A DNA stretch of 13,189 bases from a virus (taxonomy: Duplodnaviria; Heunggongvirae; Uroviricota; Caudoviricetes). The stretch covers positions 1 to 13,189 of the IMG/VR virus record IMGVR_UViG_2548876940_000012; one strand, given 5' to 3'. How positions within the stretch are numbered: position 1 is the stretch's first letter; each line of letters opens with the position of its first letter. The position numbers were made by a program, and so were the translations under genes. Positions 1 to 13,189 of the stretch are shown piece by piece. The notes under the pieces are model-generated. The model made no database searches. It was not told where the DNA came from and saw only the letters and a list, made by a program, of their open reading frames with translations.

Positions 1-72
1 TGAACTCCTGAAAATGGCTGTGAAAATATCGCCCGCGAAATGCCAGGCTGATTAGGTAAACAGGAAAGGGGA

Positions 73-483
73 TTAGTGATTCAGACCGTTGCCGCGCCCG
101 TCGAGAAAAACTTCCACGAGCAAGTCACGGGTATAAGTGCGCTCGATGCCGCGATGCAGATAAAGTCGTCCGCGTAAATTAGCTGATGCAGTCCAGGTAC
201 CATCTTTGCGTTTGACCAGCATTCCTGGCATGACCGCACCGCGATTAACGGTTTGCGTTCCGTAATGTTGATGAACCATAAAAACTCCTGCCCGTAAGCT
301 GGGCTGCTGAACATATAGAGACTTCTGCGCGTATTCAGGCGGTGGATGGCCGCCGGTTGTCATAACTAAGCCGCCTCGTTGAAGCGACTGAGGTATAAAG
401 TGTTGTGTTGATTTCAGCTGGTCACACCGACGTTCACGCGTCCGTTTCACCCCTCGCACTCCCCGAAGCCTGCTGAAATTCAA
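73..483 (-). CDS. Hypothetical leftward early protein with Arg-rich N-terminus (VKRTRERR); sits in the N-gene position left of the OL-like operators. Annotated start is TTG; an in-frame ATG at 363 (96 aa) has a GAGG upstream
   Basis: ORF on minus strand ending at 73. The basic motif resembles the arginine-rich motif of lambdoid N proteins, but I recognise no overall similarity and there is no boxA/boxB in the leader. Confidence 0.3.
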
Positions 484-564
484 ACTGCGGATCTAAGCGG
501 TCATCGCAACGGTGAATCAGGTAGTTGCCGTATCGTTGTGTTGTTGCGATGAACTTATTTAAAA

Positions 565-630
565 CTATAGTTGTTTTATCGTCAACAACAAAAGTTGTTT
601 TAATGGTTGTTTTAGATATAACTGGTTGTA
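565..630. promoter_or_regulatory. OL-like operator cluster: repeated GTTGTT/AACAAC half-sites, including ATGGTTGTT identical to the OR half-site
   Basis: GTTGTT at 570-575, AACAAC at 584-589, GTTGTT at 594-599, ATGGTTGTT at 603-611, GGTTGT at 624-629. Same half-site as the perfect palindrome at 2982-3006. Confidence 0.45.
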
Positions 631-720
631 TTTAGGATGGATTTATTTTGTGACTTGAATCGCATAGCGATAACTGAAGTGAGGTATGGTGGTTTTTCGA
701 ACGGTTTGTGTGATGAGGGG

Positions 721-749
721 ACAAAAGAAAACCCGGCACGGTGGCCGGG
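721..749 (-). terminator. Rho-independent terminator ending the cI / GNAT-PUA / ASCH leftward operon
   Basis: On the minus strand: 6-bp GC stem CCCGGC / GCCGGG (plus 732-737 and 744-749) with a 6-nt loop, followed by UUUUCUUUUGU (plus 721-731). It lies 4 nt after the ASCH stop codon. Confidence 0.65.
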
Positions 750-753
750 ATTC

Positions 754-1131
754 TTACGCAGGTAGGTAAAGATATGATTGTGGTGGCTTAATATTACTAC
801 CTAGAGCAGAGATAGGAATTGGTTCTTTATATCTTTCCACTTCACCAATTTTTATTGCGTAGGCCTTTTCTCTACCTGAATAATATGAGTCATAAAATTG
901 CTTAGAAATACCTGCGTGTTTTTCCGTCTTTTTCCAAAGAGATTCCGGTTCGTCACTTAGTATTGATTCAATACGGAATTGACCAACAACTTTACCTAAT
1001 GGCATCGTGGCATAAATAACAACGGTGCTAATTTGCGGATTTTTGAATATACCTTTACGAAACTCGAACCGCTTTGTTCCGTTCAATATTTTTTCTGCAA
1101 ACTCAGGCTTAATGGATAATAAAACTTTCAT
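754..1131 (-). CDS. ASCH-domain (PUA-like fold) protein, 125 aa
   Basis: N-terminal GTKRFEFR matches the ASCH signature G-x-K-x-x-E-x-R. Overlaps the upstream ORF by 23 bp (1109-1131). AT-rich relative to the prophage backbone. Confidence 0.7.
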   Translation of the reverse strand: MKVLLSIKPEFAEKILNGTKRFEFRKGIFKNPQISTVVIYATMPLGKVVGQFRIESILSDEPESLWKKTEKHAGISKQFYDSYYSGREKAYAIKIGEVERYKEPIPISALGSNIKPPQSYLYLPA

Positions 1132-2182
1132 TTATCTTGCCTAACTCGATGATCTTTAAGAACTGCTCATTTGTGAGTTTAAAGTGACTCCATCGGAATG
1201 CACGCGAACCATTTAGCCCCACATGATCTATTAAAATAGCACGATTGGGTCTCTTTGGCAAAGACAGATTGTATGTGAATCTTATAATGAAAGGGTATCG
1301 ACGTTCTTTATAGATTTTTCTGAGTTCATCTTCAGAAAATACGCTAAAACGAATACAATAGTCTACAAAACTATCTTCGCTTAAAAATTCAGAAATATTT
1401 TTTACGCTCTCAACTACACATAATGTACTGGCTACAGAACGATAGCGAGCTGGCCCTTTTTTGTCTCCGGTTCTATAGATGACAATGATATCTCCTCTTT
1501 TCATTCCCATCACAGAACGCATTCCACATATGTAAATTTTATGAATGCTGTTAGCATGGGATATATCTTTGACAATATCTGGTGATTCATTTACAAGTTT
1601 TGAATCAGGGAATAGTCTAGTGTGATATTCGGGATAAATCGCCAGTAAATATTTGTTGGCCCTTGATGTCATTATTCGAGGGTAATCTAATAAAATATCA
1701 CCATAAGGCTCATGCAAAGACCTCGCATATACAAACTCTTTCCCGTTATGTGTTTCTTTTTCACCATGAATGTAAAATCCGTACGTTTGGAAAAGTTTTA
1801 TTAGATGGACGTGTTTGTCGAAAACAGTAACATAAATATCATCAGATTTTGATGAAAATGCATGGTCAAACGCTTTTTTTAGAAATCGTTGTCCGCGAAG
1901 GGTGCCTTTAGATTCAAATTTGAATGTTCCTATCTTTAGATGACGTCCTGGTGGGAGCGCTGGATTAATGTCATTTGCATCATCATTTTCTTTTAGATAC
2001 ATAAAACCTTCGATTTTATGCTTGTCATCATAGAGCACATAAGCTGATTCTCCTTCTCTGGCTTTTTTTTCTAACCAAAGAGGAAACTCTTTATAATCTT
2101 TTTTTAAAGAGTCAAAAAATGGGTCATTGTGATCAAAATCAGAGAATTTCTCATATTTTAAAGTATCCATTAAGTTCTCCAT
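1109..2182 (-). CDS. Two-domain protein, 357 aa: GNAT-like N-terminal region and PUA/EVE-like C-terminal region (tentative). Alternative start at 2170 (Met5) has a GGAG 6 nt upstream
   Basis: Residues ~45-155 have a GNAT-like pattern (RGQRFLKKAF ... IYVTVFDKHVHLIKLFQTYGFYIHGE). Residues ~215-240 (KIYICGMRSVMGMKRGDIIVIYRTG) resemble the EVE/PUA-like core. No terminator separates it from cI upstream. AT-rich. Confidence 0.65.
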   Translation of the reverse strand: MENLMDTLKYEKFSDFDHNDPFFDSLKKDYKEFPLWLEKKAREGESAYVLYDDKHKIEGFMYLKENDDANDINPALPPGRHLKIGTFKFESKGTLRGQRFLKKAFDHAFSSKSDDIYVTVFDKHVHLIKLFQTYGFYIHGEKETHNGKEFVYARSLHEPYGDILLDYPRIMTSRANKYLLAIYPEYHTRLFPDSKLVNESPDIVKDISHANSIHKIYICGMRSVMGMKRGDIIVIYRTGDKKGPARYRSVASTLCVVESVKNISEFLSEDSFVDYCIRFSVFSEDELRKIYKERRYPFIIRFTYNLSLPKRPNRAILIDHVGLNGSRAFRWSHFKLTNEQFLKIIELGKINESFIIH

Positions 2183-2250
2183 TCTAAAATGAATAATTAA
2201 GTTGTTTTACTGAATGAGCACAATGCCCGGTTGATAATTTTTAATTGGTA

Positions 2251-2940
2251 CTATCCATGCTTCCTATACGTCTGCGGCATGCTCCCAATAACTTTCCCGA
2301 AGATAAATACCCGGTTCATCTCATCTTTCTCGATCGGGTCCCACGGTGAGTAGCTTTTGTTATCAGAGATAACCAGCAGCTTATCCTTCATCATTTGCAG
2401 GCGCTTTACATGGGCTGTGTCGTCGTACAGAAACGCATAGATACCATCACCGTCGAAAGATTTAACCGTGATATCAACGAATAGAAGATCACCAGGTTCA
2501 ATCGTTCCTGACATGCTGTCACCGCGTACGTTAATGATGCGGATATTTTCTGCCTTCCTACCATCGAACATGTGACGAGCATCGTCAAACGAGTACTCAA
2601 CCGAGCGTAGAACTTCTACAAACTCACGGTTGATGACTCCCGGCCCAGCACTGACTTCTATATCAAGAACGTCAATCTTGAAGTATTTGGAATGGCTGAC
2701 AGTTGATTGTATTGGTTGCACTGTACTGTCTGACATATTTCCAACGCCAGAAGATAACCATTCTGCGCGCACACCCAAAGCGTTCGCGATCTCCACGATT
2801 TTAGTTGTTTGATTAGCTTTCCCTGTTTCGATTTTCTGAATAGCAGCCTGGCTAACCCCGACCAAATCCCCAAGCGCCTTTTGTGTAAGGCCTCGCGCTA
2901 ATCTGGCTTCTTTAAGTCTTTCTGAGAGTGTTGTTTTCAT
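2251..2940 (-). CDS. cI: CI-like prophage repressor: N-terminal HTH (XRE type) plus C-terminal LexA/S24-type autopeptidase domain
   Basis: MKTTLSERLKEARLARGLTQKALGDLVGVSQAAIQKIE is an HTH; the C-terminal region has GDSM...GD-LLFVD and a K, typical of S24 self-cleaving repressors. The start was moved to the internal Met at 2940 so that the operator palindrome lies outside the CDS; the longest ORF runs to 3006. Confidence 0.9.
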   Translation of the reverse strand: MKTTLSERLKEARLARGLTQKALGDLVGVSQAAIQKIETGKANQTTKIVEIANALGVRAEWLSSGVGNMSDSTVQPIQSTVSHSKYFKIDVLDIEVSAGPGVINREFVEVLRSVEYSFDDARHMFDGRKAENIRIINVRGDSMSGTIEPGDLLFVDITVKSFDGDGIYAFLYDDTAHVKRLQMMKDKLLVISDNKSYSPWDPIEKDEMNRVFIFGKVIGSMPQTYRKHG

Positions 2941-2981
2941 AGTCCAAATGTACAACCAAGGTTTTATTCCATCAAACGAAA

Positions 2982-3006
2982 ATGGTTGTTGACTAAAAAC
3001 AACCAT
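2982..3006. promoter_or_regulatory. OR operator: perfect 9-bp inverted repeat ATGGTTGTT-N7-AACAACCAT
   Basis: Read directly: ATGGTTGTT (2982-2990), gactaaa, AACAACCAT (2998-3006), between the divergent cI and cro starts. Weaker related half-sites lie at 2930-2935 and 2952-2958. Confidence 0.65.
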
Positions 3007-3017
3007 AGTTTTAATCT
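2989..3017 (+). promoter_or_regulatory. Candidate PR promoter (-35 TTGACT, 17-bp spacer, -10 TAATCT) overlapping the operator
   Basis: TTGACT at 2989-2994 and TAATCT at 3012-3017. Followed by GGAGG at 3035-3039 and the cro ATG at 3045. Confidence 0.4.
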
Positions 3018-3044
3018 TGATTCAAATTAACCACGGAGGTTGTT

Positions 3045-3275
3045 ATGAACCCAGCTATCAAAACAGCGATCAATATCGTTGGTTCACAAAAGAAACTGGG
3101 CGCTGCTTGCGAAGTTTCACAGCAGGCCGTCTATAAGTGGCTTCACAACAAAGCAAAGGTATCCCCTGAACATGTCGGCAGCATTGTTACGGCTACTGGT
3201 GGAGTAGTGAAGGCATACCAGATTCGCCCGGATCTTCCGAAGTTGTTTCCACACACCGAAAAGAACGCAGCTTAA
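3045..3275 (+). CDS. Cro-like HTH repressor (YdaS family), 76 aa
   Basis: First gene of the rightward operon, divergent from cI, with a GGAGG RBS. The HTH-like segment SQKKLGAACEVSQQAVYKWL matches the Rac-prophage YdaS-type Cro. Confidence 0.8.
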   Translation: MNPAIKTAINIVGSQKKLGAACEVSQQAVYKWLHNKAKVSPEHVGSIVTATGGVVKAYQIRPDLPKLFPHTEKNAA

Positions 3276-3287
3276 ATTTCCATTTCA

Positions 3288-3300
3288 CGCTCTTTAACAA
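3288..3300 (+). promoter_or_regulatory. boxA-like element (CGCTCTTTAACAA) just downstream of cro; nutR-like position
   Basis: Matches the rrn/lambda boxA core GCTCTTTAACAA as I recall it. It lies 13 nt after the cro stop. No GC-stem boxB hairpin follows. Confidence 0.5.
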
Positions 3301-3344
3301 TAAGCAATCAACTTAACAGTCAATTCAAACTAAAGGAGTCAATT

Positions 3345-3884
3345 ATGCAACCACTTACATACCAACAGACTAGCGGATTTAGCCCAACTGCGGTGATAAA
3401 TCGTTCTCAAACAAAACAGGTGCCAGGCCACGAAAAAATCCGTGATGCCGTCCGCGCCTGGTCGGCTGTAGATAATCAGGATGTCGTTGCCACACTCATT
3501 GTGAATGAGTATCGGGAGCAGGGCGGCGGCACCATCGATTTCCCTGATGATGTCAGCCGTGCACGCCAGAAGCTGTTCCGCTTCCTCGATAACAAATTCG
3601 ATTCTGAAAAATACCGAAATAACGTGCGTGAACTGACCCCGGCAATTCTGGCGGTACTACCGCTGGAATATCGCGGTTACCTGGTTGAGCAGGATAGCTT
3701 CATGACTCGGTTGGCTGAAATGGAAAAGGAACTCAGTGAGGCAAAACAGGCTGTCATTCTCAACGCACCACGCCACCAGAAACTGAAGGAAATGAGTGAA
3801 GGTATTGTGTCGATGTTTCGTGTGGACCCAGATCTGGCTGGTCCATTGATGGCGATGGTTACTACCATGCTGGGGGCGATATGA
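3345..3884 (+). CDS. YdaT-family (cII-position) regulatory protein, 179 aa
   Basis: EYREQGGG and LTPAILAVLP motifs match E. coli Rac YdaT as I recall it (EEYLRQGGG ... LIPAILAILP). AAGGAG RBS. It occupies the cII slot after cro. Confidence 0.7.
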   Translation: MQPLTYQQTSGFSPTAVINRSQTKQVPGHEKIRDAVRAWSAVDNQDVVATLIVNEYREQGGGTIDFPDDVSRARQKLFRFLDNKFDSEKYRNNVRELTPAILAVLPLEYRGYLVEQDSFMTRLAEMEKELSEAKQAVILNAPRHQKLKEMSEGIVSMFRVDPDLAGPLMAMVTTMLGAI

Positions 3885-3970
3885 CAGGTTCAGAAATGGC
3901 GAAAGCCGGTCTGCGCGAACAGAACCGACTTTCAGGTGCAAATCGTAACACACTCATTGCGGGAGGAATT

Positions 3971-4900
3971 ATGGCAAACACTGCTGAGATATTCAATTTT
4001 CCAGTGCCGGATGCGGCACAAAAGGAGCCGCGCGTGGCAGATCTCGATGATGGTTATACGCGCATTGCAAATGAGTTGCTGGAAGCTGTGATGCTGGCCG
4101 GATTAACACAGCACCAGCTTCTGGTCTTCCTGGCTGTCATGCGCAAAACATATGGCTTTAATAAAAAACTGGATTGGGTGAGCAACGAGCAACTTTCCGA
4201 GTTGACCGGGATATTGCCGCACAAGTGTTCTGCTGCAAAAAGTGTTCTGGTAAAGCGTGGGATTTTTATTCAGAGCGGGCGGAATATCGGCATTAATAAT
4301 GTGGTCAGTGAATGGTCAACATTACCCGAATCAGGTAAGAAAAATAAAGTTTACCTGAAAGAGGTAAATTTACCTGAATCAGGTAAGAAAAGTTTACCCA
4401 AATCAGGTAAAGGCGTTTACCCGAATCAGGTAAACACAAAAGACAAACTAACAAAAGACAATATAAAACCTTATTCGTCCGAGAATTCTGGCGAATACTC
4501 TGACCAGCCAGAAAACGACCTTCCTGTGGTGAAACCGGATGCTGCGATTCAGAGCGGCAGCAAGTGGGGGACAGCAGAAGACCTGACCGCCGCAGAGTGG
4601 ATGTTTGACATGGTGAAGACCATCGCACCATCAGCCAGAAAACCGAATTTTGCAGGGTGGGCTAACGATATCCGCCTGATGCGTGAACGTGACGGACGTA
4701 ACCACCGCGACATGTGTGTACTGTTCCGCTGGGCATGCCAGGACAACTTCTGGTCCGGTAACGTGCTGAGTCCGGCCAAACTCCGCGACAAGTGGACCCA
4801 GCTCGAAATCAACCGAAACAAGCAACAGGCTGGCGTGACAGCCGGCAAACCAAAACTCGACCTGACGAACACTGACTGGATTTACGGGGTGGAGCTATGA
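3971..4900 (+). CDS. O: Replication initiator O (lambda O family) with ori iterons embedded in the linker; diverged N-terminal domain and lambda-like C-terminal domain
   Basis: Start at MANTAEIFNF with a GGGAGG RBS, aligning with the lambda O start MTNTAKILNF. The C-terminus (...KPKLDLTNTDWIYGVEL) matches lambda O from memory. The ORF can extend to 3881, where an ATGA overlaps the upstream stop. Confidence 0.85.
   Translation: MANTAEIFNFPVPDAAQKEPRVADLDDGYTRIANELLEAVMLAGLTQHQLLVFLAVMRKTYGFNKKLDWVSNEQLSELTGILPHKCSAAKSVLVKRGIFIQSGRNIGINNVVSEWSTLPESGKKNKVYLKEVNLPESGKKSLPKSGKGVYPNQVNTKDKLTKDNIKPYSSENSGEYSDQPENDLPVVKPDAAIQSGSKWGTAEDLTAAEWMFDMVKTIAPSARKPNFAGWANDIRLMRERDGRNHRDMCVLFRWACQDNFWSGNVLSPAKLRDKWTQLEINRNKQQAGVTAGKPKLDLTNTDWIYGVEL
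4322..4470. repeat. Replication origin: five 17-bp iterons (consensus TTACCYGAATCAGGTAA, each an internal inverted repeat) followed by an A-rich stretch
   Basis: Iterons at 4322-4338, 4351-4367, 4370-4386, 4394-4410 and 4417-4433, then acacaaaagacaaactaacaaaagacaatataaaacc. The arrangement matches ori-lambda inside O, but the iteron sequence differs from lambda. Confidence 0.8.
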
Positions 4901-5598
4901 AAAACATCGCCGCACAGATGGTTAACTTTGACCGTGAGCAGATGCGTCGGATCGCCAACAACATGCCGGAACAGTACGACGAAAAGCCGCAGGTACAACA
5001 GGTAGCGCAGATCATCAATGGTGTGTTCAGCCAGTTACTAGCAACTTTCCCGGCGAGCCTGGCTAACCGGGACCAGAACGAACTGAACGAAATCCGCCGC
5101 CAGTGGGTGCTGGCTTTCCGGGAAAACGGGATCACCACAATGGAACAGGTTAACGCAGGAATGCGCGTAGCCCGTCGGCAGAATCGACCATTCCTGCCAT
5201 CACCCGGGCAGTTTGTCGCCTGGTGCCGGGAAGAAGCATCCGTTACCGCCGGGCTGCCAAACGCCAGCGAGCTGGTTGATATGGTTTACGAGTATTGCCG
5301 GAAGCGTGGCCTGTATCCGGACGCAGAGTCTTATCCATGGAAATCAAACGCGCACTACTGGCTGGTTACCAACCTGTACCAGAACATGCGGGCCAATGCG
5401 CTTACTGATGCGGAATTACGGCGCAAGGCTGCCGATGAACTGTCCTGTATGACCGCGCGAATTAACCGTGGTGAGGCGATACCTGAACCAGTAAAACAGC
5501 TTCCTGTCATGGGCGGTAGACCTCTAAATCGTGCACAGGCTCTGGCGAAGATCGCAGAAATCAAAGCTAAGTTTGGGCTGAAAGGAGCAAGTGTATGA
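4897..5598 (+). CDS. P: Replication protein P (DnaB helicase loader), lambda P-like, 233 aa
   Basis: Sequence MKNIAAQMVNFDREQMRRIANNMPEQYDEKPQ... is recognised as near-identical to lambda P (from memory). ATGA overlap with the O stop. Confidence 0.9.
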   Translation: MKNIAAQMVNFDREQMRRIANNMPEQYDEKPQVQQVAQIINGVFSQLLATFPASLANRDQNELNEIRRQWVLAFRENGITTMEQVNAGMRVARRQNRPFLPSPGQFVAWCREEASVTAGLPNASELVDMVYEYCRKRGLYPDAESYPWKSNAHYWLVTNLYQNMRANALTDAELRRKAADELSCMTARINRGEAIPEPVKQLPVMGGRPLNRAQALAKIAEIKAKFGLKGASV

Positions 5599-5768
5599 CG
5601 GGCAAAGAGGCAATTATTTATTACCTGGGGACGCATAAGAGCTTCTGTGCGCAGGACGTTGCTGCGGCAACAGGTGTGACAGTAACCTGCATAAATCAGG
5701 CAGCAGCTAAAATGGCGCGTGCAGGAATCCTGGTCATTGATGGTAAGGTCTGGCGAACGTTTGTTTAA
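5595..5768 (+). CDS. ren: Ren-like protein, C-terminally truncated relative to lambda Ren (57 aa here, ~96 aa in lambda)
   Basis: ATGA overlap with the P stop. MTGKEAIIYYLGTH...INQAAAKMARAGILVIDGKVWRT resembles the lambda Ren N-terminus as recalled. The ORF stops early where the AT-rich moron island begins. Not in the ORF track because it is under 60 aa. Confidence 0.55.
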   Translation: MTGKEAIIYYLGTHKSFCAQDVAAATGVTVTCINQAAAKMARAGILVIDGKVWRTFV

Positions 5769-5914
5769 CGGTTAGCTACTCAGGATGATAGGGTGGGGCA
5801 AGTGAGTATGAAGCGGATTTTCAGGAATGCCGTCAGAGTTTGGAAATAAAGTGGGTTTTCTAGTGGCAAGAGACTTGATAATATTTAGTTCTTTAAATCC
5901 AAGGAGATAGGGTT

Positions 5915-6409
5915 ATGAGAAAATTTATTTTAGCCTTTGTCATAAGTGCCTCGTTTACAGCAAATGCTGGTGTAGAGAAGTTAGGGCCGTGGATAACAAA
6001 GTCTGAGATAAATAAAATGACTGACCAGACTGACTTTGTGGCTCTTAATTTATCACCAGATTCATATAACAAAGCAGGTACTGATCGTGCAACTTCACTG
6101 GTGTTGCGTTGTAGTGATAACAAAACAGATGCCTATTTATCATTCAATGATTATATGGGGTCGGACAACCCAAGAATTACAGTGCGGTTAGATGGCGGAA
6201 AGCCGGTCAAGAGTGTTTGGGGAGGTGGGGAAGGCGGTGATTCTGCATTTGCTCCACAACCAATACAATTTATAAAGACCTTGGCTAAGCATAAAAAAGC
6301 TATTTTTGGGTTTGAACCTTATGGATCAACTATGCAAGTAGTTGAGTTTGACTTGTCTGAGATTGATAAGGTTGTGGAAAAAATTTCACAGTCTTGCAAT
6401 TGGAAATGA
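5915..6409 (+). CDS. Secreted/periplasmic hypothetical protein with Sec signal peptide (moron)
   Basis: N-terminal MRKFILAFVISASFTANA with an A-N-A cleavage motif. AAGGAGA RBS. Two Cys residues (C66, C161). AT-rich. Followed by an intrinsic terminator. Confidence 0.7.
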   Translation: MRKFILAFVISASFTANAGVEKLGPWITKSEINKMTDQTDFVALNLSPDSYNKAGTDRATSLVLRCSDNKTDAYLSFNDYMGSDNPRITVRLDGGKPVKSVWGGGEGGDSAFAPQPIQFIKTLAKHKKAIFGFEPYGSTMQVVEFDLSEIDKVVEKISQSCNWK

Positions 6410-6426
6410 CAAAAAAATTTCATATG

Positions 6427-6454
6427 AACCCAGTTGGCGCTGGGTTTTTTATTT
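6427..6454 (+). terminator. Rho-independent terminator after the secreted-protein gene
   Basis: Stem AACCCAG / CTGGGTT (6427-6433 and 6440-6446), loop TTGGCG, then a T-run TTTTTTATTT. Confidence 0.65.
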
Positions 6455-6873
6455 CAGTAGCCAATAATGCATTCAAAATCTCTTACTTGAGAAACGGCCT
6501 ATTTGAGATTTCAGTCGTGGCAGGATGATCAGTTGATTCGAGTATTGACGCATTTACGTTCTGAACGGCTGTAATAAAGTTGCGGGAGAGAAATGCCGCT
6601 AGTATTTTGTAATTAATTGAATGCTGAAGGTTTAATGAGAAGTCAAGAACACTACTTGTACTATAATCGTTCGATGTTAGTGAGGGTTTGATGCAAAAAA
6701 TGAAGTGATTGACCCTAAATTTGCGCGATCAGCGACAGATTGTACACCGAGATCCTGTGGGCTGGAATTTGCAGAGAAATACCGAAAATGATATCCAATA
6801 TTGTTTTCAGTTCCTACATCATACCTGATAAGGGTATAATCATAAAAATTAGGATAATTCAAGTTATAATTGT

Positions 6874-7290
6874 ATGAATAAAAACGACCTTGAAGCATTA
6901 TCTGACACTAGGCTTAATGAGGCCAAATGCTTGCTTGATCATGGCTTTTTTCATGGTGCATATTATCTTTGTGGGTATGCAGTTGAATGTGCATTGAAGG
7001 CCTGTATTGCCAAGTCATTTTTACAACATGAGTTTCCAAACAAAAAAGTCGTAAATGATTCATATACTCATGATTTGTCGCAACTTCTCAAAATTGCCAA
7101 CTTACATCAAATTTTGATTGCTGACGCAAAAAATGATGTTTCGTTGGAGATTAACTGGTCGGTCGTTAAAGACTGGAGCGAGCAATTTAGATACGACAAT
7201 AACATAAGTAAAGCTATGGCCGAACAATTGTTTGATGCTGTAGGTGACCAAAATTCTGGAGTTTTGAAATGGGTAAAAGCACACTGGTAA
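6874..7290 (+). CDS. HEPN-domain protein (classical HEPN type), 138 aa; putative RNase toxin/effector
   Basis: Helix motif GAYYLCGYAVECALKA (E-x2-LKA), H-D-L motif (SYTHDLSQLL) and a later R-Y (EQFRYDN), as in classical HEPN/HepT-type domains. A GGAG for the downstream gene lies inside its 3' end. Confidence 0.65.
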   Translation: MNKNDLEALSDTRLNEAKCLLDHGFFHGAYYLCGYAVECALKACIAKSFLQHEFPNKKVVNDSYTHDLSQLLKIANLHQILIADAKNDVSLEINWSVVKDWSEQFRYDNNISKAMAEQLFDAVGDQNSGVLKWVKAHW

Positions 7291-7670
7291 TCGGCAGAGA
7301 GTTGACAAAAGATATGGAATTCTCAGGTCAATTTTTATTAAAAAAACTCAAGTTACAGAATTTAACTATTGATGCTGCAATGTGGTTTTATTACCCAGAT
7401 CTATCTTGGAGATATATTTTAGTTATCAGTGACTTCTCAGAACGTGGACCGGCAGAAATATATAGAAAAATCAGTGAGATAAATAGAAATAGCATATCAA
7501 AAAAGTATAAGCCGATACCATTAGAAGCAATTGAGGCTAAGGGGGATTCAGCTTTTATTTATAAAATGTTAAAAGGATTTGCTAGAGTCAACGATGGTAA
7601 AGTTCGCGTTTCTAATTCTATGGTAAATGGTTTAGAAATCGTTGACTGTCTGATCTATGAGTTAAAATAA
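7269..7670 (+). CDS. Hypothetical protein, 133 aa; overlapping partner of the HEPN gene; no nucleotidyltransferase (MNT) motif detected
   Basis: Overlaps the HEPN ORF by 22 bp, with a GGAG 8 nt upstream of its ATG. Lacks the G-S...D-x-D/E Pol-beta signature. AT-rich. Confidence 0.55.
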   Translation: MGKSTLVIGRELTKDMEFSGQFLLKKLKLQNLTIDAAMWFYYPDLSWRYILVISDFSERGPAEIYRKISEINRNSISKKYKPIPLEAIEAKGDSAFIYKMLKGFARVNDGKVRVSNSMVNGLEIVDCLIYELK

Positions 7671-7741
7671 GAAATCTCTTGCTGGGTATCATTATTGTTT
7701 AAATGACTTTTGATTTTCAATAATCAACTTGTCATAATTAA

Positions 7742-7770
7742 GTCACCGGAGTTTGAACTCCTCCGGTGAC
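7742..7770. other. Stable GC-rich hairpin (GTCACCGGAG ... CTCCGGTGAC) between the moron island and the nin genes; no clear T-tract
   Basis: 10-bp perfect inverted repeat with a 9-nt loop, read directly. Possible terminator or processing site at the module boundary. Confidence 0.4.
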
Positions 7771-7891
7771 TTCTGCGCTAAACGGGGACGTTTATGCGCA
7801 CATACAATCCAAACTCTCTTCTCCCTTCACAGATGCAGAAATGTACCTGCGATTTTTTGCATCCAGCGTTTGACCTCTGCGGAGGTGAATC

Positions 7892-8347
7892 GTGAACCTC
7901 CTACAAGATGGCATCAAATTGCATCGTGGTAACTTCACCGCTATCGGCCAGCAGATCCAGCCTTATCTGGAGGACGGCAAATGCTTTCGCATGGTGCTTA
8001 AACCGTGGCGCGAGAGACGCAGTCTTTCCCAGAATGCACTCAGCCACATGTGGTACAGCGAAATCAGTGAATACCTCATCAGCAAGGGTAAAACGTTCGC
8101 CACTCCAGCTTGGGTAAAAGATGCTCTCAAACACACATATCTCGGTTATGAAACCAAAGAGCTGGTTGATGTCGTAACCGGTGATATCACCACTATCCAG
8201 TCGTTACGCCATACCTCCGATCTTGATACCGGAGAGATGTATGTCTTCCTGTGTAAGGTTGAAGCCTGGGCGATGAATATTGGTTGCCATCTGACTATTC
8301 CGCAGAGCTGCGAGTTCCAGCTGCTGCGCGACAAGCAGGAGGCGTAA
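7892..8347 (+). CDS. ybcN: NinB/YbcN-family protein (DLP12 YbcN-like), 151 aa
   Basis: GTG start with a GGAGG RBS. The [11 protein letters not shown] motif resembles the NinB SLDQN motif. It sits at the head of the ninE-ybcO-rusA-ylcG cluster, as in DLP12. Confidence 0.75.
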
Positions 8348-8517
8348 TGGCTACACCGCTTATTCGTGTCATGAACGGACACATCTACAAAGTACCAAAT
8401 CGTCGTAAGCGTAAACCTGAGCTGAAGCCATCCGAAATACCAACTCTGCTCGGATATACCGCCAGCCTGGTTGATAAAAAATGGTTGCGACTGGCAGCAA
8501 GGAGGAATCATGGCTGA
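8347..8517 (+). CDS. ninE: NinE-family protein, 56 aa
   Basis: TAATG overlap with the upstream stop. PNRRKRKPELKP ... YTASLVDKKWLRLAARR parallels lambda NinE (PTKRTRNKPKP ... YTAHLWDIRWLRRRAR) from memory. Confidence 0.7.
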   Translation: MATPLIRVMNGHIYKVPNRRKRKPELKPSEIPTLLGYTASLVDKKWLRLAARRNHG

Positions 8518-8800
8518 TTTGAGAAAAGCAGCGCGTGGTCGGGAATGCCAGGTAAGAATCCCTGGCGTATGTAATGGCAATTCTGAAACGTCTGTACTGG
8601 CACATATCCGGCTGACTGGATTGTGCGGCACCGGTACGAAACCGCCAGACCTGATTGCCACCATTGCATGTTCTGCCTGCCACGACGAAATCGACCGCCG
8701 CACGCATTTTGTTGACGCTGGATATGCAAAAGAATGCGCGCTGGAAGGTATGGCGAGAACGCAGGTTATCTGGCTGAAAGAGGGGGTAATTAAGGCGTGA
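8510..8800 (+). CDS. ybcO: YbcO-family putative nuclease (DLP12 YbcO-like), 96 aa
   Basis: Start at [10 protein letters not shown] with a GGAGG RBS. Cys-rich CNGN...CSACHDEID motif. Recognised as near-identical to E. coli YbcO from memory. Confidence 0.8.
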
Positions 8801-9159
8801 ATACCTACAGCATCACATTACCCTGGCCTCCGAGCAATAATCGCTATTACCGCCATAATCGCGGGCGCACGCACGTCAGCGCAGAGGGGCAGGCATACCG
8901 CGATAACGTCGCCCGAATCATTAAAAACGCAATGCTGGATATCGGCCTGGCTATGCCTGTGAAAATCCGTATTGAGTGCCACATGCCGGATCGCCGTCGC
9001 CGTGACCTGGATAATCTGCAAAAAGCCGCTTTTGACGCACTCACCAAAGCAGGTTTCTGGCTGGATGATGTTCAGGTCGTTGATTACCGTGTTGTGAAGA
9101 TGCCCGTTACCAAAGGTGGGAAGCTGGAGCTGACCATCACTGAACTGGGGAATGAATGA
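8797..9159 (+). CDS. rusA: RusA Holliday-junction resolvase, 120 aa
   Basis: [24 protein letters not shown]... is recognised as essentially the E. coli RusA sequence (from memory). GTGA overlap with the ybcO stop. Confidence 0.9.
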
Positions 9160-9296
9160 TGTTTGAGTCTTATATGGCAGAACGTCTTCGCCACCGCTGG
9201 ATGCGCCTGCGCTTATATCGTTTCCCCGGTTCTGTTTTGACCGATTACCGGATACTGAAGAATTACACCAAAACACTGAAAGGAGCTGCCGCATGA
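9156..9296 (+). CDS. ylcG: YlcG-like small protein, 46 aa
   Basis: Translated by hand: [46 protein letters not shown]. Overlaps the rusA stop and the downstream ATG (ATGA). Same position as ylcG in DLP12. Confidence 0.6.
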
Positions 9297-9982
9297 ATAC
9301 CCAATATTTACAGTATGTCCGCGAGCAACTCATTGTGGCTACTGCTGATTTGAGCGGAGCAACTAAAGGCCAGCTTGAAGCTTGGCTGGAGCATGCACAA
9401 TTTGATACTGGTACATATAAACGAAAGAAGCCGCGCATTCTGGATGAGGTAACGGGCAAGATGATTACGCTGGATAATCCGCCGATTTCCGGTAAGCAGT
9501 CGTACGCAAAAGGTTCATCCATTGCACTGGTCAGCCAGGTTGAGTTCTCAACCTCGTCATGGCGCCGCGCGGTTCTGTCTCTCGATGAACATCAGAAAGC
9601 GTGGTTGCTGTGGAGTTACAGCGAAAGTGTTCGCTGGGAGCATCAGGTCACCATAACGCAGTGGGTATGGAGCGAGTTTAAGACTCTGTTGGGTACCAGG
9701 AAAATTGCAGGTAAGACACTGGAACGTTTGAAGAAGTTGATCTGGCTGGCGGCACAGGATGTGAAGAACGAGCTGGCAGGGCGTAAGACCTATGAATACC
9801 AGGAGCTGGCATCACTGGTGGGAGTGACATCAAAAAACTGGTCTGAGACATTTACTGAACGCTGGGTTGCAATGAAGCACATTTTTCTACAGCTTGATAG
9901 CCAAGCTTTATTGCTTTTAACGAAAACACGTTCAAAACAAAAGGCCACATTTTCACAGCAAGATATTGCAAAACTGGATTAA
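9293..9982 (+). CDS. Putative late-gene antiterminator (Q-like), 229 aa
   Basis: The call is positional: last gene before a ~300-bp noncoding region with an intrinsic terminator, followed by the lysis cassette. No Zn-finger Cys pattern as in lambda Q, so the family is unassigned. Confidence 0.5.
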   Translation: MNTQYLQYVREQLIVATADLSGATKGQLEAWLEHAQFDTGTYKRKKPRILDEVTGKMITLDNPPISGKQSYAKGSSIALVSQVEFSTSSWRRAVLSLDEHQKAWLLWSYSESVRWEHQVTITQWVWSEFKTLLGTRKIAGKTLERLKKLIWLAAQDVKNELAGRKTYEYQELASLVGVTSKNWSETFTERWVAMKHIFLQLDSQALLLLTKTRSKQKATFSQQDIAKLD

Positions 9983-10163
9983 AAAGCATATATTTCATAT
10001 AAATCTGATATTTTGCCAATGTTGTACGCACTGGCAGTATTCCAAATTCAAGCTCGAGGTTTAAAGCCTTGGGCTTTTCTGTTTCTGGGCGGTGAGTATC
10101 CTTCCAACGTACCCCAGCCAGGGTGTCTTCAGCTGTTGAGTTGATATTGCTTAACCCTCTGTT

Positions 10164-10189
10164 GCCAGCTACATGCTGGCTTTTTTATT
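10164..10189 (+). terminator. tR'-like rho-independent terminator in the Q-to-lysis intergenic region
   Basis: Stem GCCAGC / GCTGGC (10164-10169 and 10175-10180), loop TACAT, then TTTTTTATT. It lies ~180 bp after the Q-like stop, consistent with a short PR' transcript. Confidence 0.6.
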
Positions 10190-10303
10190 CCAGGCTTGCG
10201 GGGAGCATCAACTCCGTGCTTTGTCGTTAAATTACCCCGTGAGCCTGATTTCTGACATTTAACGTCCCGGCCTTTTGTCGGCGGCGAAACATTGGCTATT
10301 CAT

Positions 10304-10609
10304 ATGCACGAAAAAGAGAGCCTTGCCGGAGCGTTCTGGCTCGTTTTGCTGATCATCGCAGGTTGGGGCGGTCTGGTCCGCTACCTGATAGATGTGAAGC
10401 AGAGTAAAGCAACGTGGAGTTGGATAAATGCTCTGGCTCAGATAGTGGTATCAGGATTCACCGGTGTTATTGGTGGCCTGATCAGTATCGAAAGTGGATT
10501 CAGTATTTACATGATTCTCGCGACAGCGGGGATTAGTGGTGCGATGGGTTCGGTTGCACTGACGTACTTCTGGGAACGACTGACAGGGGTGAAAAATGCA
10601 AAATCTTAA
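10304..10609 (+). CDS. Putative holin with three predicted transmembrane segments; alternative TTG start at 10292
   Basis: Hydrophobic segments AFWLVLLIIAGWGGLV, WINALAQIVVSGFTGVIGGLI and FSIYMILATAGISGAMGSVAL, then a charged C-terminus. Immediately upstream of, and overlapping, the endolysin gene. Confidence 0.6.
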   Translation: MHEKESLAGAFWLVLLIIAGWGGLVRYLIDVKQSKATWSWINALAQIVVSGFTGVIGGLISIESGFSIYMILATAGISGAMGSVALTYFWERLTGVKNAKS

Positions 10610-11072
10610 TCCTCAGCGTAAAGCTTTCCTCGATATGTTGGCGTGGTCAGAGGGAACGGATAACGGGCGACAACCGACACGTAACCACGGTTATGATGTT
10701 ATTGTTGGTGGTGAACTGTTTACTGATTACTCCGATCATCCTCGCAAACTTGTCACGCTAAACCCGAAACTTAAATCAACAGCCGCCGGACGTTATCAGC
10801 TTCTTTCACGCTGGTGGGATGCTTACCGTAAGCAGCTTGCTCTGAAAGACTTCTCTCCGAAAAGCCAGGACGCTGTGGCATTGCAGCAGATTAAGGAGCG
10901 TGGCGCTTTACCGATGATTGATCGCGGTGATATTCGTCAGGCAATTGACCGTTGCAGCAATATCTGGGCTTCACTGCCGGGTGCTGGTTATGGTCAGTAT
11001 GAACATAAAATTGGCGACCTGATTTCCCGGTTTAAAGAGGCTGGTGGGGTAGTAAATGAAGCTGAGATATAA
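10596..11072 (+). CDS. R: Endolysin R, lambda-type lytic transglycosylase, 158 aa
   Basis: QRKAFLDMLAWSEGTDNGRQ ... IDRGDIRQAIDRCSNIWASLPGAGYGQ is recognised as near-identical to lambda R (from memory). Confidence 0.9.
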   Translation: MQNLNPQRKAFLDMLAWSEGTDNGRQPTRNHGYDVIVGGELFTDYSDHPRKLVTLNPKLKSTAAGRYQLLSRWWDAYRKQLALKDFSPKSQDAVALQQIKERGALPMIDRGDIRQAIDRCSNIWASLPGAGYGQYEHKIGDLISRFKEAGGVVNEAEI

Positions 11073-11448
11073 GCTGGTTATTGTTGCCTTCTTTGTTACC
11101 GTCATTGGTTCCTTCATCTGGTCTGCCGGGCATTACTACAGCAAATATCTGCACGAAAAGGAGCGTGTTGATGAGGCTATACGAAATGCTGAATCAGCAA
11201 CTGCCATTACCCGTAACGTTCTGCAATCACTGCAAATCATCAATACAGTTATAGAGGCTAACCAGCATGCAAAACAGCAGATTGCACTGGAGTCACAGAG
11301 AACCCAGGAAGATATCAAAGTGGCTGTTGCGGATGATGATTGTGCTTCACGTCCTGTGCCTGCTGCCGCTGCTGACCGGTTGCGGAAGTACGCGGACAGT
11401 TTACGTGAACACTCCGGCGGTACCACTGCCAGCCAGCCTGACTTCTGA
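11056..11448 (+). CDS. Rz: Rz-like i-spanin, 130 aa
   Basis: N-terminal TM segment (LVIVAFFVTVIGSFIW), a periplasmic region rich in charged residues with a single Cys near the C-terminus. Overlaps the R 3' end. Contains the start of the Rz1 frame. Confidence 0.75.
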   Translation: MKLRYKLVIVAFFVTVIGSFIWSAGHYYSKYLHEKERVDEAIRNAESATAITRNVLQSLQIINTVIEANQHAKQQIALESQRTQEDIKVAVADDDCASRPVPAAAADRLRKYADSLREHSGGTTASQPDF

Positions 11449-11584
11449 AACACCGATTCCAGTTGTACCTAGTCCACTGACATATGGTGCTAGCCTGGAA
11501 CTGAATGCGAGTTTGTTATCTGCATTAGCGCAATGCAATAGAGATAAAAAGGATATTCTAAAAATAGGATATCAAAATGAATAA
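11333..11584 (+). CDS. Rz1: Rz1-like o-spanin lipoprotein, +1 frame relative to Rz, extending beyond the Rz stop
   Basis: Lipoprotein signal MMIVLHVLCLLPLLTGC with lipobox LLTG-C. Pro-rich mature region. Starts inside Rz at 11333 and ends 136 nt after the Rz stop. Confidence 0.7.
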   Translation: MMIVLHVLCLLPLLTGCGSTRTVYVNTPAVPLPASLTSETPIPVVPSPLTYGASLELNASLLSALAQCNRDKKDILKIGYQNE

Positions 11585-11620
11585 ATATTTTCCTGAAAAT
11601 GATTGTAACTGTGCTATAAA

Positions 11621-11626
11621 TATAAT
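11621..11626 (+). promoter_or_regulatory. Perfect TATAAT -10 hexamer upstream of the 169-aa moron gene; no convincing -35
   Basis: TATAAT at 11621-11626, 24 nt upstream of the ATG at 11651, with AAGGTGAG as RBS. Confidence 0.3.
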
Positions 11627-11650
11627 CATCAAATAATATAAAGGTGAGTT

Positions 11651-12160
11651 ATGGAAAGGTTTATAAAATCAATTGAATCTTCAATTGAAAGTGAGAATTG
11701 GTTAGCGGCATTGTTTATGGCTCTTGCTATGCCTGATATTTGCAGGAGCGTTGAACGTCCCAAAATAGGTAAGGGTGAAACAGGGAAATGGTATAAAGAT
11801 TGGGTTTCTCGTTATCTTGAAAATAAATATACATCCGGTACACATGAACAGTGTCGATTTTATGCGGATGATTTTTGGCTGTATCGTTGTTCTTGTTTAC
11901 ATGCTGGACAGGATCCAGAGAACAGGAAAAGAATGATGCAGTTTAATTTTACACCACCACCTAGGCCAAATTGCCAAGTGCATTTAAATCACTTAAATGG
12001 CAAACTTCAGTTGCAAATAGATGTGTTTTGTCGAGATATGATTGAGGCAGTCAATCAATGGCGTACTGAGGTCGAGGATACGCCAGAAATTAAGGCTCGT
12101 ATGGATTCTCTGATAAATATATCATTAGCATCTTTTGGAACATTCATTGTACTTGGTTAA
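11651..12160 (+). CDS. Hypothetical moron protein, 169 aa, with an Rx4H motif (YRCSCLH); possible HEPN-like effector
   Basis: AT-rich island between the lysis genes and the HNH/terminase genes. R-x4-H (R-CSCL-H) resembles the HEPN catalytic motif. Bounded by a -10 hexamer upstream and an inverted repeat downstream. Confidence 0.6.
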   Translation: MERFIKSIESSIESENWLAALFMALAMPDICRSVERPKIGKGETGKWYKDWVSRYLENKYTSGTHEQCRFYADDFWLYRCSCLHAGQDPENRKRMMQFNFTPPPRPNCQVHLNHLNGKLQLQIDVFCRDMIEAVNQWRTEVEDTPEIKARMDSLINISLASFGTFIVLG

Positions 12161-12166
12161 ATATTA

Positions 12167-12208
12167 ATGAAGTGAATTTTACAGTGGGTACTAAAAGGTT
12201 CACTTCAT
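12167..12208 (+). other. 10-bp inverted repeat ATGAAGTGAA ... TTCACTTCAT with a 22-nt spacer, downstream of the moron gene; possible terminator
   Basis: Read directly (12167-12176 and 12199-12208). The loop is long for a canonical intrinsic terminator and the 3' T-tract is weak. Confidence 0.3.
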
Positions 12209-12267
12209 TTAATGATTTCCCTAACACAAATTAGTTTTTAGAGAGGAAACTATTTAGGACATTAATA

Positions 12268-12618
12268 ATGCCCCCTCGAACCCCAAAAGCCTGCCGTGTT
12301 CGCGGCTGCCGCTCTACAACCACAGACCCGTCAGGCTACTGCGAAAGCCACAAAAGCGAAGGCTGGAAGCAATACAAACCAGGACAATCCCGTCATCAGC
12401 GCGGCTACGGTTCGAAGTGGGACAGTATCCGCGCGCGTGTCCTGAAGCGTGACAAAGGCCTGTGTCAGTTATGTCTGCGTGCTGGTGTGGTGCGTGAGGC
12501 GAAAACTGTTGACCACATCATCCCTAAAGCGCATGGCGGCACTGATGCTGACAGTAATCTGCAGAGTCTGTGCTGGCCGTGTCATAAGGCGAAGACGGCC
12601 CGTGAACGGTTAAATTGA
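12268..12618 (+). CDS. HNH endonuclease (terminase-associated, HK97-like packaging module), 116 aa
   Basis: HNH motif: CQLCLRAG ... VDHIIPKAHGGTDADSNLQSLCWPCHKAK. Located immediately upstream of the small terminase. Confidence 0.9.
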   Translation: MPPRTPKACRVRGCRSTTTDPSGYCESHKSEGWKQYKPGQSRHQRGYGSKWDSIRARVLKRDKGLCQLCLRAGVVREAKTVDHIIPKAHGGTDADSNLQSLCWPCHKAKTARERLN

Positions 12619-12644
12619 TAATAATTCTCAACTGTCTGAGGGGA

Positions 12645-12704
12645 GGGGCGGGTCAAATCCCTGTGACCTGACGTCTTCCGGACTGCCCGCCCCGTCGTTT
12701 TTTT
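12645..12704 (+). other. GC-rich inverted repeat (GGGGCGGG ... CCCGCCCC) followed by a T7 run: terminator and/or cos-region structure between HNH and terS
   Basis: GGGGCGGG at 12645-12652 and CCCGCCCC at 12686-12693, then GTCGTTTTTTTAT (T-run 12698-12704). Confidence 0.4.
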
Positions 12705-12743
12705 ATACCCGCGAAAAATGAAATTTAACCAGGAGTGCCGCAT

Positions 12744-13189
12744 ATGGCTGGAACGGCGGGGCGTTCCGGGCGTCGCCCCAAGCCAACGGCGCGCAAGGCG
12801 CTGGCCGGAAACCCCGGCAAGCGAGCCCTGAACAAAGATGAACCTGTTTTTACGCCCATCAAAGGTGTTGAGCCACCGGAGTGGTTCGCAGAAGAAGATC
12901 TCCCTCTCGCCACGATCATGTGGCAACTGACAACCAAAGAACTCTGCGGTCAGGGCCTGCTGTGCGTGACTGACCTTGCGGTACTTGAGCGGTGGTGCGT
13001 GGCCTATGAGTTCTGGCGACGTGCCGTGAAAAATATTGCCAGACAGGGCAACACCATCACCGGTGCAATGGGTGGCATGGTTAAAAATCCGGAGCTGACC
13101 GCCAAGAAAGAACAGGAGTCCGAGATGAGCAGCACGGGGGCAATGCTCGGACTCGACCCCAGCAGCCGCCAGCGTCTGATTGGCCTGGC
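12744..13189 (+). CDS. Terminase small subunit, P27 family; 5' partial (runs off the window end)
   Basis: AGGAG RBS at 12731-12735. Hand translation MAGTAGRSGRRPKPTARKALAGNPGKRALNKDEPVFTPIKGVEPPEWF... matches the P27-family small-terminase N-terminus. No stop before 13189. Confidence 0.8.
   Translation, partial: MAGTAGRSGRRPKPTARKALAGNPGKRALNKDEPVFTPIKGVEPPEWFAEEDLPLATIMWQLTTKELCGQGLLCVTDLAVLERWCVAYEFWRRAVKNIARQGNTITGAMGGMVKNPELTAKKEQESEMSSTGAMLGLDPSSRQRLIGL

Follow-up and report, generated by a model that had tools for sequence, protein, structure and literature searches.

A prophage copy of the GNAT-EVE and ASCH gene pair PDC-M11 in the lambda rexA-rexB position

A stretch of 13,189 nucleotides (nt) from a virus of the class Caudoviricetes (IMG/VR record IMGVR_UViG_2548876940_000012, positions 1 to 13,189), referred to below as the window, contains a two-gene cassette directly downstream of a cI-type repressor gene. 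The larger gene encodes a fusion of GNAT and EVE-like domains and the smaller one a protein with an ASCH domain; following the labels of a closely related phage, they are called gevT and gevA. Judged by sequence and domain composition, the locus is a copy of a known GNAT-EVE and ASCH pair, catalogued as PDC-M11, and thus a rediscovery rather than a new system. The identity of the cassette and of the slot that it occupies is regarded as practically certain. The remaining interest of the locus lies in the mechanism, namely in the substrate, the trigger, and the way in which the ASCH protein would neutralize its partner.

The locus between cI and the immunity terminator

The window corresponds to the region of immunity and early genes in a lambdoid Escherichia coli prophage. 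The following features were found at the cassette and around it.

559-614 (no strand assigned): OL/PL-type operator cluster, with three tandem TAAAACAAC sites at 570-614 and a TTGACG hexamer resembling a -35 element
722-749 (-): intrinsic terminator, equivalent of t_imm, with the stem CCCGGC-CACCGT-GCCGGG at 749-732 followed by the T-run TTTTCTTTTG
750-2251 (-): exchangeable cargo cassette, delimited by breaks of homology to phages with different cargo
754-1131 (-): gevA-like gene for an ASCH-domain protein of 125 amino acids (aa); its start overlaps the 3' end of gevT by 23 nt
1109-2170 (-): gevT-like gene for a fusion of GNAT and PUA-like (EVE/ASCH-type) domains, 353 aa; an alternative ATG at 2182 gives 357 aa
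2171-2250 (-): leader between the cI stop and the gevT ATG, 80 nt, specific to the cassette
2251-2940 (-): cI-type repressor with the Pfam domains HTH_3 (E-value 6.5e-13) and Peptidase_S24 (E-value 1.5e-18); the open reading frame (ORF) is open up to 3006
2974-3014 (no strand assigned): region with OR-type operators between cI and cro, in which the OL sites recur in inverted orientation (19 nt with 95% complementarity to 559-577)

The operator 9-mer TAAAACAAC is present in four copies in the window, against 0.17 expected. The three tandem OL sites and their inverted counterpart next to cro define the order OR - cI - cargo - terminator - OL/PL. In phage lambda, the corresponding layout is cI-rexA-rexB-t_imm-OL/PL. 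The pair occupies the position of rexA-rexB, from the cI stop to the immunity terminator, and should therefore be transcribed together with cI in lysogens. No terminator was predicted in a scan of the leader between 2251 and 2170. Likewise, no promoter in this leader passed the scan, and reading by eye gives only 3/6 hexamers. At the other end of the cassette, the hairpin at 749-722 has a fold energy of -17.5 kcal/mol (z = -3.97). This terminator is part of the conserved phage backbone and not of the cassette, because the homology shared with phages of different cargo starts again precisely at 749/750. The GC content is 0.31-0.37 over positions 750-2250 and 0.43-0.57 in the flanks; for the two genes it is about 35%.

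For two genes the start codon required a choice. The gevT start is likely the ATG at 2170 rather than that at 2182, because the former has a GGAG (2180-2177) 6 nt upstream and because nearly all homologues are 350-357 aa long and align from this Met. The cI gene probably starts at 2940, giving the 690 nt annotated in RefSeq and in PV340567.1, and not at 3006.

The fourth exact copy of TAAAACAAC is located at 2201-2209 (-), inside the cargo leader and 31 nt upstream of the gevT ATG. By its match to the operator sites, this 9-mer may be a putative repressor-binding site that regulates the cargo.

An initial annotation, made from the letters of the window alone, had described most of this layout. 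Its two ORFs, at 754-1131 (-) for 125 aa and 1109-2182 (-) for 357 aa with an overlap of 23 nt, were recovered. The same holds for the upstream cI-like repressor ending at 2251, now recognized by HTH_3 and Peptidase_S24, for the lack of a terminator between cI and the larger gene, and for the intrinsic terminator after the ASCH stop, on both of which the predictions agree. The proposed rexAB position is supported by the operator-type sites of OL and OR together with the terminator. The AT-richness of the pair relative to its flanks was reproduced, and the horizontal acquisition suggested from it is borne out by the sharp boundaries of the cassette described below.

Identity of the pair and properties of its products

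GevT matches the PADLOC model PDC-M11A (PDLC04419) with an E-value of 2.1e-133, residues 6-356 being aligned to positions 10-356 of the 357 positions of the profile. GevA matches PDC-M11B (PDLC04425) with an E-value of 6.8e-52. In PHROGs, both proteins belong to families of unknown function. At the nucleotide level, positions 600-2300 of the window are 99.1% identical to eight lambdoid coliphages. One of these is PhiR47_2 (GenBank PV340567.1), in which the two genes are labelled 'GevT toxin' and 'GevA antitoxin'; its copy of the pair is 98-99% identical. The PhiR phage panel traces to Brenes and Laub 2025.

The same architecture was noticed in an earlier study. EVE domains with a fused GNAT were described there as a cluster of their own, and operons composed of GNAT-EVE and ASCH genes were predicted to be toxin-antitoxin (TA) systems (Bell, Wolf & Koonin, 2020; PMC7641849). 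According to these authors, prophages of beta- and gamma-proteobacteria are a common location of GNAT-EVE proteins, and no such module had been characterized at that time; the earlier description is credited to Iyer et al. (2013). The view of the initial annotation that no named defence system has this architecture is thus contradicted by the PADLOC entry, by the study of Bell et al. (2020), and by the GevT/GevA labels. The pair is mentioned neither in DefensePredictor nor in a domain-centric screen.

GevT gave no match in the Pfam scan, GNAT models included. With a GevT-family profile of 36 homologues, a match to the GNAT enzyme PaiA was obtained over residues 4-146 (E-value 2.8e-5). The AlphaFold model of GevT (mean pLDDT 87.5) has the canonical GNAT topology in its N-terminal part and a second, PUA-like domain of the EVE/ASCH type in its C-terminal part. 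When this model was used in Foldseek, GNATs ranked best, with PaiA at the top, and ZmASCH was also in the list; for the C-terminal domain, ZmASCH is the best structural match. Hence both domains that are characteristic of PDC-M11, the GNAT fold and the EVE/PUA-like domain, were found in GevT. The family has about 70 invariant residues at a protein identity of 45-83% across phyla. Among the invariant residues are G93 and R95 in the loop for binding pyrophosphate/coenzyme A (CoA), H120, Y130, and G131-F132; Tyr130 lies three residues after the Phe that is aligned to the Tyr of PaiA. Given these invariant residues, GevT is regarded as probably competent as an enzyme.

GevA contains the Pfam domain ASCH (PF04266, E-value 2.5e-8) and is a full-length homologue of ZmASCH from Zymomonas mobilis (PDB 5GUQ), with an E-value of 8e-16 for the single sequence and of 7e-20 for the family profile. 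Nucleic acids are bound in a basic cleft of ZmASCH, which in vitro cleaves single-stranded RNA in a Mg-dependent manner, and its residues Tyr47, Lys53, and Ser128 matter for binding or cutting of nucleic acids. Its authors reported no acidic metal-binding site, and the activity required 3 uM enzyme. GevA retains equivalents of Tyr47, Thr49, Arg32, and Gln127-Ser128, all of them invariant or nearly so in the family; Y40 and Q118-S119 of GevA are invariant. The residues Lys53, Arg50, and Trp15 of ZmASCH are not conserved in GevA. In the GxKxxExR motif of the GevA family, K20, E23, and R25 are invariant, and outside the motif E51 is nearly invariant. In the window itself, codon 51 of gevA (979-981) encodes Gln (GQF) in place of the Glu of the family (G-E-F); ZmASCH has Phe at this position.

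YqfB, an ASCH protein with amidohydrolase activity, was absent from the PDB search with GevA at E <= 10, both for the single sequence and for the family profile, and the profile found only ZmASCH. An assignment of GevA to the YqfB-type amidohydrolases was rejected, since YqfB remained undetected by the profile at this threshold.

GevA also matches the C-terminal 'unknown domain' of NF008917 (fusion of ribosomal protein L22 and an unknown domain) with an E-value of 2.8e-15, far below the cut-off of that model. This match hints that the ASCH subfamily of GevA is able to act at the ribosome or on rRNA.

Two further relationships were considered and rejected. The gene for ZmASCH is not the gevA of a Zymomonas GNAT-EVE operon, its upstream neighbour of 375 aa being unlike GevT (BLASTP E-value 5; hhalign probability 0.1%). 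This same-strand neighbour has no Pfam or PADLOC match and precedes the ZmASCH gene (locus L084:4825-6447) in 3/3 returned loci of Z. mobilis. As it is unrelated to GevT, proteins of the ZmASCH type may have partners among other uncharacterized proteins. Also, the C-terminal domain of GevT and GevA do not appear to be recent duplicates. The alignment by hhalign covers only 21 residues, corresponding to the first strand and helix, with a probability of 42%, and beyond these elements the likeness is at the level of fold only.

The occurrence of the pair was surveyed in 80 loci, each of a different species (Proteobacteria, Bacteroidota, Firmicutes, Acidobacteriota, Verrucomicrobiota, and others), and in 54 viral contigs whose copies are non-identical. 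All 80 species-level loci have an ASCH homologue of GevA, in 77 of them directly downstream on the same strand. In the viral loci, the ASCH gene adjoins the GNAT-EVE gene in 54/54. The two genes overlap by exactly 23 nt in 69/77 loci and by 29 or 35 nt in six more, and their relative frame is always the same. Because length and frame of the overlap are kept across the loci, it is strong evidence for translational coupling. Thus, as would be expected of TA modules in general, the coupled genes were always found together (80/80 and 54/54, with the overlap in 69/77). Among complete E. coli genomes, gevA-specific and gevT-specific segments were found in 275 genomes each.

The protein-level claims of the initial annotation fared well in these analyses. 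The peptides quoted in it (GTKRFEFR, LIKLFQTYGFYIHGE, RGQRF, and GMRSVMGMKRGDIIVIYRTG) are all present in the translations. Its ASCH call for the 125-aa protein is that of Pfam. A GNAT-like N-terminal half with a degenerate CoA loop is consistent with the PaiA profile match and with the AlphaFold and Foldseek results, and an EVE/PUA-like C-terminal half with the second domain of the model and its similarity to ZmASCH. It had also raised conserved pairing with an ASCH gene as a point to be surveyed, and such pairing is what the 80 and 54 loci display.

Exchange, distribution, and loss of the cassette

Comparison with sister phages delimits the cassette and shows other genes in its place. The related features are listed below.

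Loci L087:3689-5262 and L086:1860-3382: alternative cargo of the slot in the sister phages PhiR5_1 and PhiR70_1
830-2205 of the window (junction locus L085:3692-3772): segment removed by a deletion that eliminates gevT completely, together with about 100 gevA codons, so that the final 25 codons of gevA remain

The homology of PhiR5_1 to the window covers positions 1-749 and 2252-3400; it breaks at the first base of the terminator stem and resumes right after the cI stop. For PhiR70_1, the corresponding segments are 1-750 and 2250-2807. In PhiR5_1 the slot contains a pair annotated as 'HipA toxin/HipD antitoxin', and in PhiR70_1 it contains three genes, one of them with an MqsA-antitoxin domain. 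Known alternative occupants of the slot therefore look TA-like by annotation and domain content. The breaks of homology, together with this other TA-like cargo, identify the interval from the cI stop to the terminator as an exchange slot for promoterless cargo.

A repressor-like neighbour is frequent in viral genomes. In 52 of the 54 viral loci, the gene immediately upstream shares the strand of the pair. This gene encodes HTH_3 in 30 loci, Phage_CI_repr in 20, and S24 in 10. A cI gene directly upstream was rejected as a universal feature, being found in only 4/73 species-level loci, although phage contigs often have it. A second E. coli allele with 65% DNA identity was found in 35 genomes. 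In the one example inspected, strain MIN9, this allele belongs to a P2/186-like prophage (locus L088:4530-7634) with the order CI repressor - 260-aa protein - GNAT-EVE - ASCH - integrase, all on one strand. The gene for the 260-aa protein lies directly upstream, 2 nt from gevT, and has no family match. An integrase gene directly after the ASCH gene was also found in several other loci of Enterobacteriaceae. In loci outside phages, the neighbouring genes vary, with integrases, AAA_17 ATPases, Fic, SIR2_2, nSTAND3, Mom, and housekeeping genes among them, which indicates that the pair is an autonomous mobile unit.

The seemingly empty slot of PhiR34_1 is the result of a deletion, in which window position 829 is joined to 2206 through the short homology GTTCTTTA / GTTGTTTTA. 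The operator-like 9-mer of the leader (2201-2209) doubles as one arm of this homology. In the one junction genome that was inspected, the accession of the neighbouring repressor is adjacent to that of the repressor beside the intact module. Additionally, in a single genome, E. coli E138 (NZ_AP022351.1), an IS1 element interrupts gevT and leaves the ASCH gene intact.

Proposed function and comparison with known systems

The best overall explanation of these data, which we hold to be reasonably probable, is that the pair is promoterless cargo of the lysogenic operon of a lambdoid prophage and acts as a TA-type module of abortive defence or exclusion. The role in defence or exclusion, taken by itself, is given a chance just above even.

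Under this explanation, the pair would be expressed with cI in lysogens, and GevT would be the effector. Its PUA-like C-terminal domain would dock on a nucleic acid, most likely tRNA or another RNA and possibly by way of a modified base, and its GNAT domain would acylate the docked substrate or the amino acid attached to it, so that translation stops. GNAT toxins acetylate aminoacyl-tRNA (as cited in Bell et al., 2020; PMC7641849), which makes tRNA the obvious candidate. Acylation of RNA or aminoacyl-tRNA as the toxic act is a tentative proposal, with a chance well short of even. GevA would be made in a fixed proportion through the 23-nt coupling and would keep GevT harmless, either through competition for the same ligand or through direct contact with GevT. 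A competitive antidote or one at the level of the target is attractive in that the targeting domain of GevT has its best structural match in ZmASCH, the homologue of GevA; direct binding to GevT has the same likelihood. Infection by another phage would then upset the balance of GevT and GevA.

Several points weigh against this explanation. The prefix PDC in PADLOC stands for phage defence candidate, and candidate is the only status that the pair has there. The toxin and antitoxin labels of GevT and GevA rest on GenBank annotation, and no experimental paper on GevT/GevA, PDC-M11, or the GNAT-EVE and ASCH pair was found in the literature. The pyrophosphate/CoA loop of GevT reads K-G-T-L-R-G instead of Q/R-x-x-G-x-G and is thus degenerate, and the Tyr of the PaiA motif FYKKMGF is replaced by Phe in the LFQTYGF of GevT; the GNAT domain of GevT may accordingly not be a standard acetyltransferase. 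The order with the toxin gene first and the ASCH partner are unlike those of known GNAT TA systems. Finally, the exact deletion junction was found in 758 of the 5426 complete E. coli genomes, versus 275 with the intact pair. Loss of the module thus carries no obvious cost for prophages, and such frequent deletion argues against strong addiction.

A more novel version of the proposal, in which GevA acts on the nucleic-acid target of GevT rather than sequestering GevT, for instance by shielding the site or by undoing or cleaving the acylated product, is suggested by the same kind of ZmASCH-like PUA domain in both proteins, but appears unlikely. If it were true, GevTA would be a TA system of a 'mimic/eraser' type that operates at the level of nucleic acids and is based on acylation, and the operator-like site in the leader could also tie expression of the cassette to the repressor. 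To our knowledge, acylation chemistry has not yet been shown for any phage defence.

Among the alternatives, a writer and eraser pair was considered, in which GevT acetylates a nucleobase (e.g., N4 of cytosine, in RNA or DNA) and the ASCH protein GevA removes the mark as an amidohydrolase, as DarG reverses the action of DarT. Some ASCH proteins are indeed amidohydrolases, YqfB hydrolyzing N4-acylcytosines according to a review; a GNAT joined to a base-reading domain fits a base-directed writer, and the invariant K20, E23, and R25 with the nearly invariant E51 would suit an enzyme. However, the GevA-family profile leads only to ZmASCH in PDB and not to YqfB at E <= 10, the characterized homologue ZmASCH was reported as an RNase and nucleic-acid binder and not as an amidohydrolase, and the allele of the window has Gln at the otherwise conserved Glu51. 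We consider this alternative rather improbable. The initial annotation had combined acyl transfer and sensing of modified bases into an anti-phage or TA-like system; the defence or TA flavour of that idea is retained here. An acetyl writer with a YqfB-like eraser has no support from the sequence.

Equally improbable is a nucleic-acid modification that benefits the phage instead of killing the host, such as anti-restriction acylation of bases or epigenetic marking, an idea credited to Iyer et al. (2013). Placement within the repressor operon implies that the genes are expressed in lysogens and not during lytic DNA synthesis, the slot of sister phages holds TA-like cargo, and the cassette is also found outside phages beside genes of the defence type. 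In favour of such a modification are the ability of EVE domains to read modified DNA bases (THYN1, VcaM4I) and one homologous locus with a Mom-family gene immediately upstream.

The roles of the two proteins could also be reversed, GevA being a single-strand RNase effector like ZmASCH and the GNAT-EVE protein a sensor or regulator that acetylates GevA or senses modified phage nucleic acid. This possibility draws on the Mg-dependent degradation of single-stranded RNA by ZmASCH and on the equivalents of Tyr47, Thr49, Arg32, and Gln127-Ser128 kept in GevA. It is judged very improbable: Lys53, Arg50, and Trp15 are not conserved, GevA is named as the antitoxin in the GenBank annotation, and the RNase activity of ZmASCH may not be physiological, given that no acidic metal-binding site was found and 3 uM enzyme was needed. 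The IS1 insertion in gevT beside an intact gevA, although a single case, is as expected if gevT is harmful. A selfish or neutral passenger, i.e., an addiction-type module or a decaying moron of no defensive benefit to the lysogen, is likewise a very improbable account, for although the E. coli deletion scar is nearly three times commoner than the intact pair and PADLOC lists the pair as a candidate only, conservation across phyla (45-83% protein identity, about 70 invariant GevT residues), the strictly conserved overlap, and repeated independent placement behind the repressors of lambdoid and P2-like phages point to selection for function.

Returning to the TA-type module of defence or exclusion, its significance would be twofold. 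The slot behind the repressor arms the hosts of temperate phages, and GevTA, found in about 5% of complete E. coli genomes (O157:H7 included) and in many phyla, is among its more widespread occupants. A GNAT steered by a reader of modified bases and accompanied by a second reader could uncover a new route to the poisoning of translation or to the marking of nucleic acids during infection.

The window contains other candidate cargo besides the pair. In the nin region, a HEPN-domain protein is encoded at 6874-7290 (+), with a Pfam E-value of 3e-6 and a weak match to PADLOC PDC-M28A (E-value 1.8e-7). Its gene overlaps by 22 nt the gene at 7269-7670 (+) for a 133-aa protein without family match, and the module is AT-rich; this two-gene module may be further defence or TA cargo. 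An AT-rich ORF at 5915-6409 (+) encodes 164 aa with an N-terminus like a signal peptide and matches the type VI secretion VasI family just past the threshold (E-value 5.3e-6; 26.7 bits against a cut-off of 26.5). Another AT-rich ORF (32-40% GC), at 11651-12160 (+) between Rz/Rz1 and an HNH endonuclease gene, encodes 169 aa without a Pfam or PADLOC match and appears to be a further moron. The gene in the cII position, at 3345-3884 (+), is called 'cII' in the PhiR records and has a YdaT_toxin domain (Pfam E-value 4.3e-30).

The pair was compared with several known systems. With lambda RexA-RexB it shares the location downstream of cI on the same strand, closed by the immunity terminator and just before OL/PL. 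In contrast, there is no relation in sequence or domains; the PADLOC scan gave only PDC-M11 models, and no Rex model was returned by the PADLOC and Pfam scans. RexAB is a membrane-depolarizing exclusion system, whereas the domains of GevTA are soluble and of a nucleic-acid type. The type II TA systems of the GNAT-RHH class (TacAT, AtaRT, KacAT, and ItaRT) have an upstream antitoxin with RHH/DUF1778. The partner of GevT is the downstream ASCH gene, and the gene upstream is cI; moreover, GevT has an extra PUA-like domain, Phe for the canonical Tyr, and a degenerate CoA loop. Neither the upstream RHH antitoxin nor the canonical loop with the catalytic Tyr was found. The pair is therefore classed with neither system, since only the position is shared with RexAB, and since GNAT-RHH systems have the fold in common with it but differ in partner, in the order of the genes, and in the catalytic motif.

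Proteins of the YqfB type share with GevA the ASCH/PUA-like fold class and a related N-terminal G-x-K motif. At the position of Thr24 in YqfB, GevA has Glu. ZmASCH is closer to GevA in sequence, and its gene differs in not being located beside a GNAT-EVE gene. The closest system is PDC-M11, the GNAT-EVE and ASCH pair of Iyer et al. (2013) and Bell et al. (2020), with which the locus shares the architecture, full-length matches to both the A and the B component, and the setting in a gamma-proteobacterial prophage. Compared with some members of PDC-M11, the form found here is short, without an N-terminal PIN domain or an AAA_17 partner, and is otherwise structurally alike.

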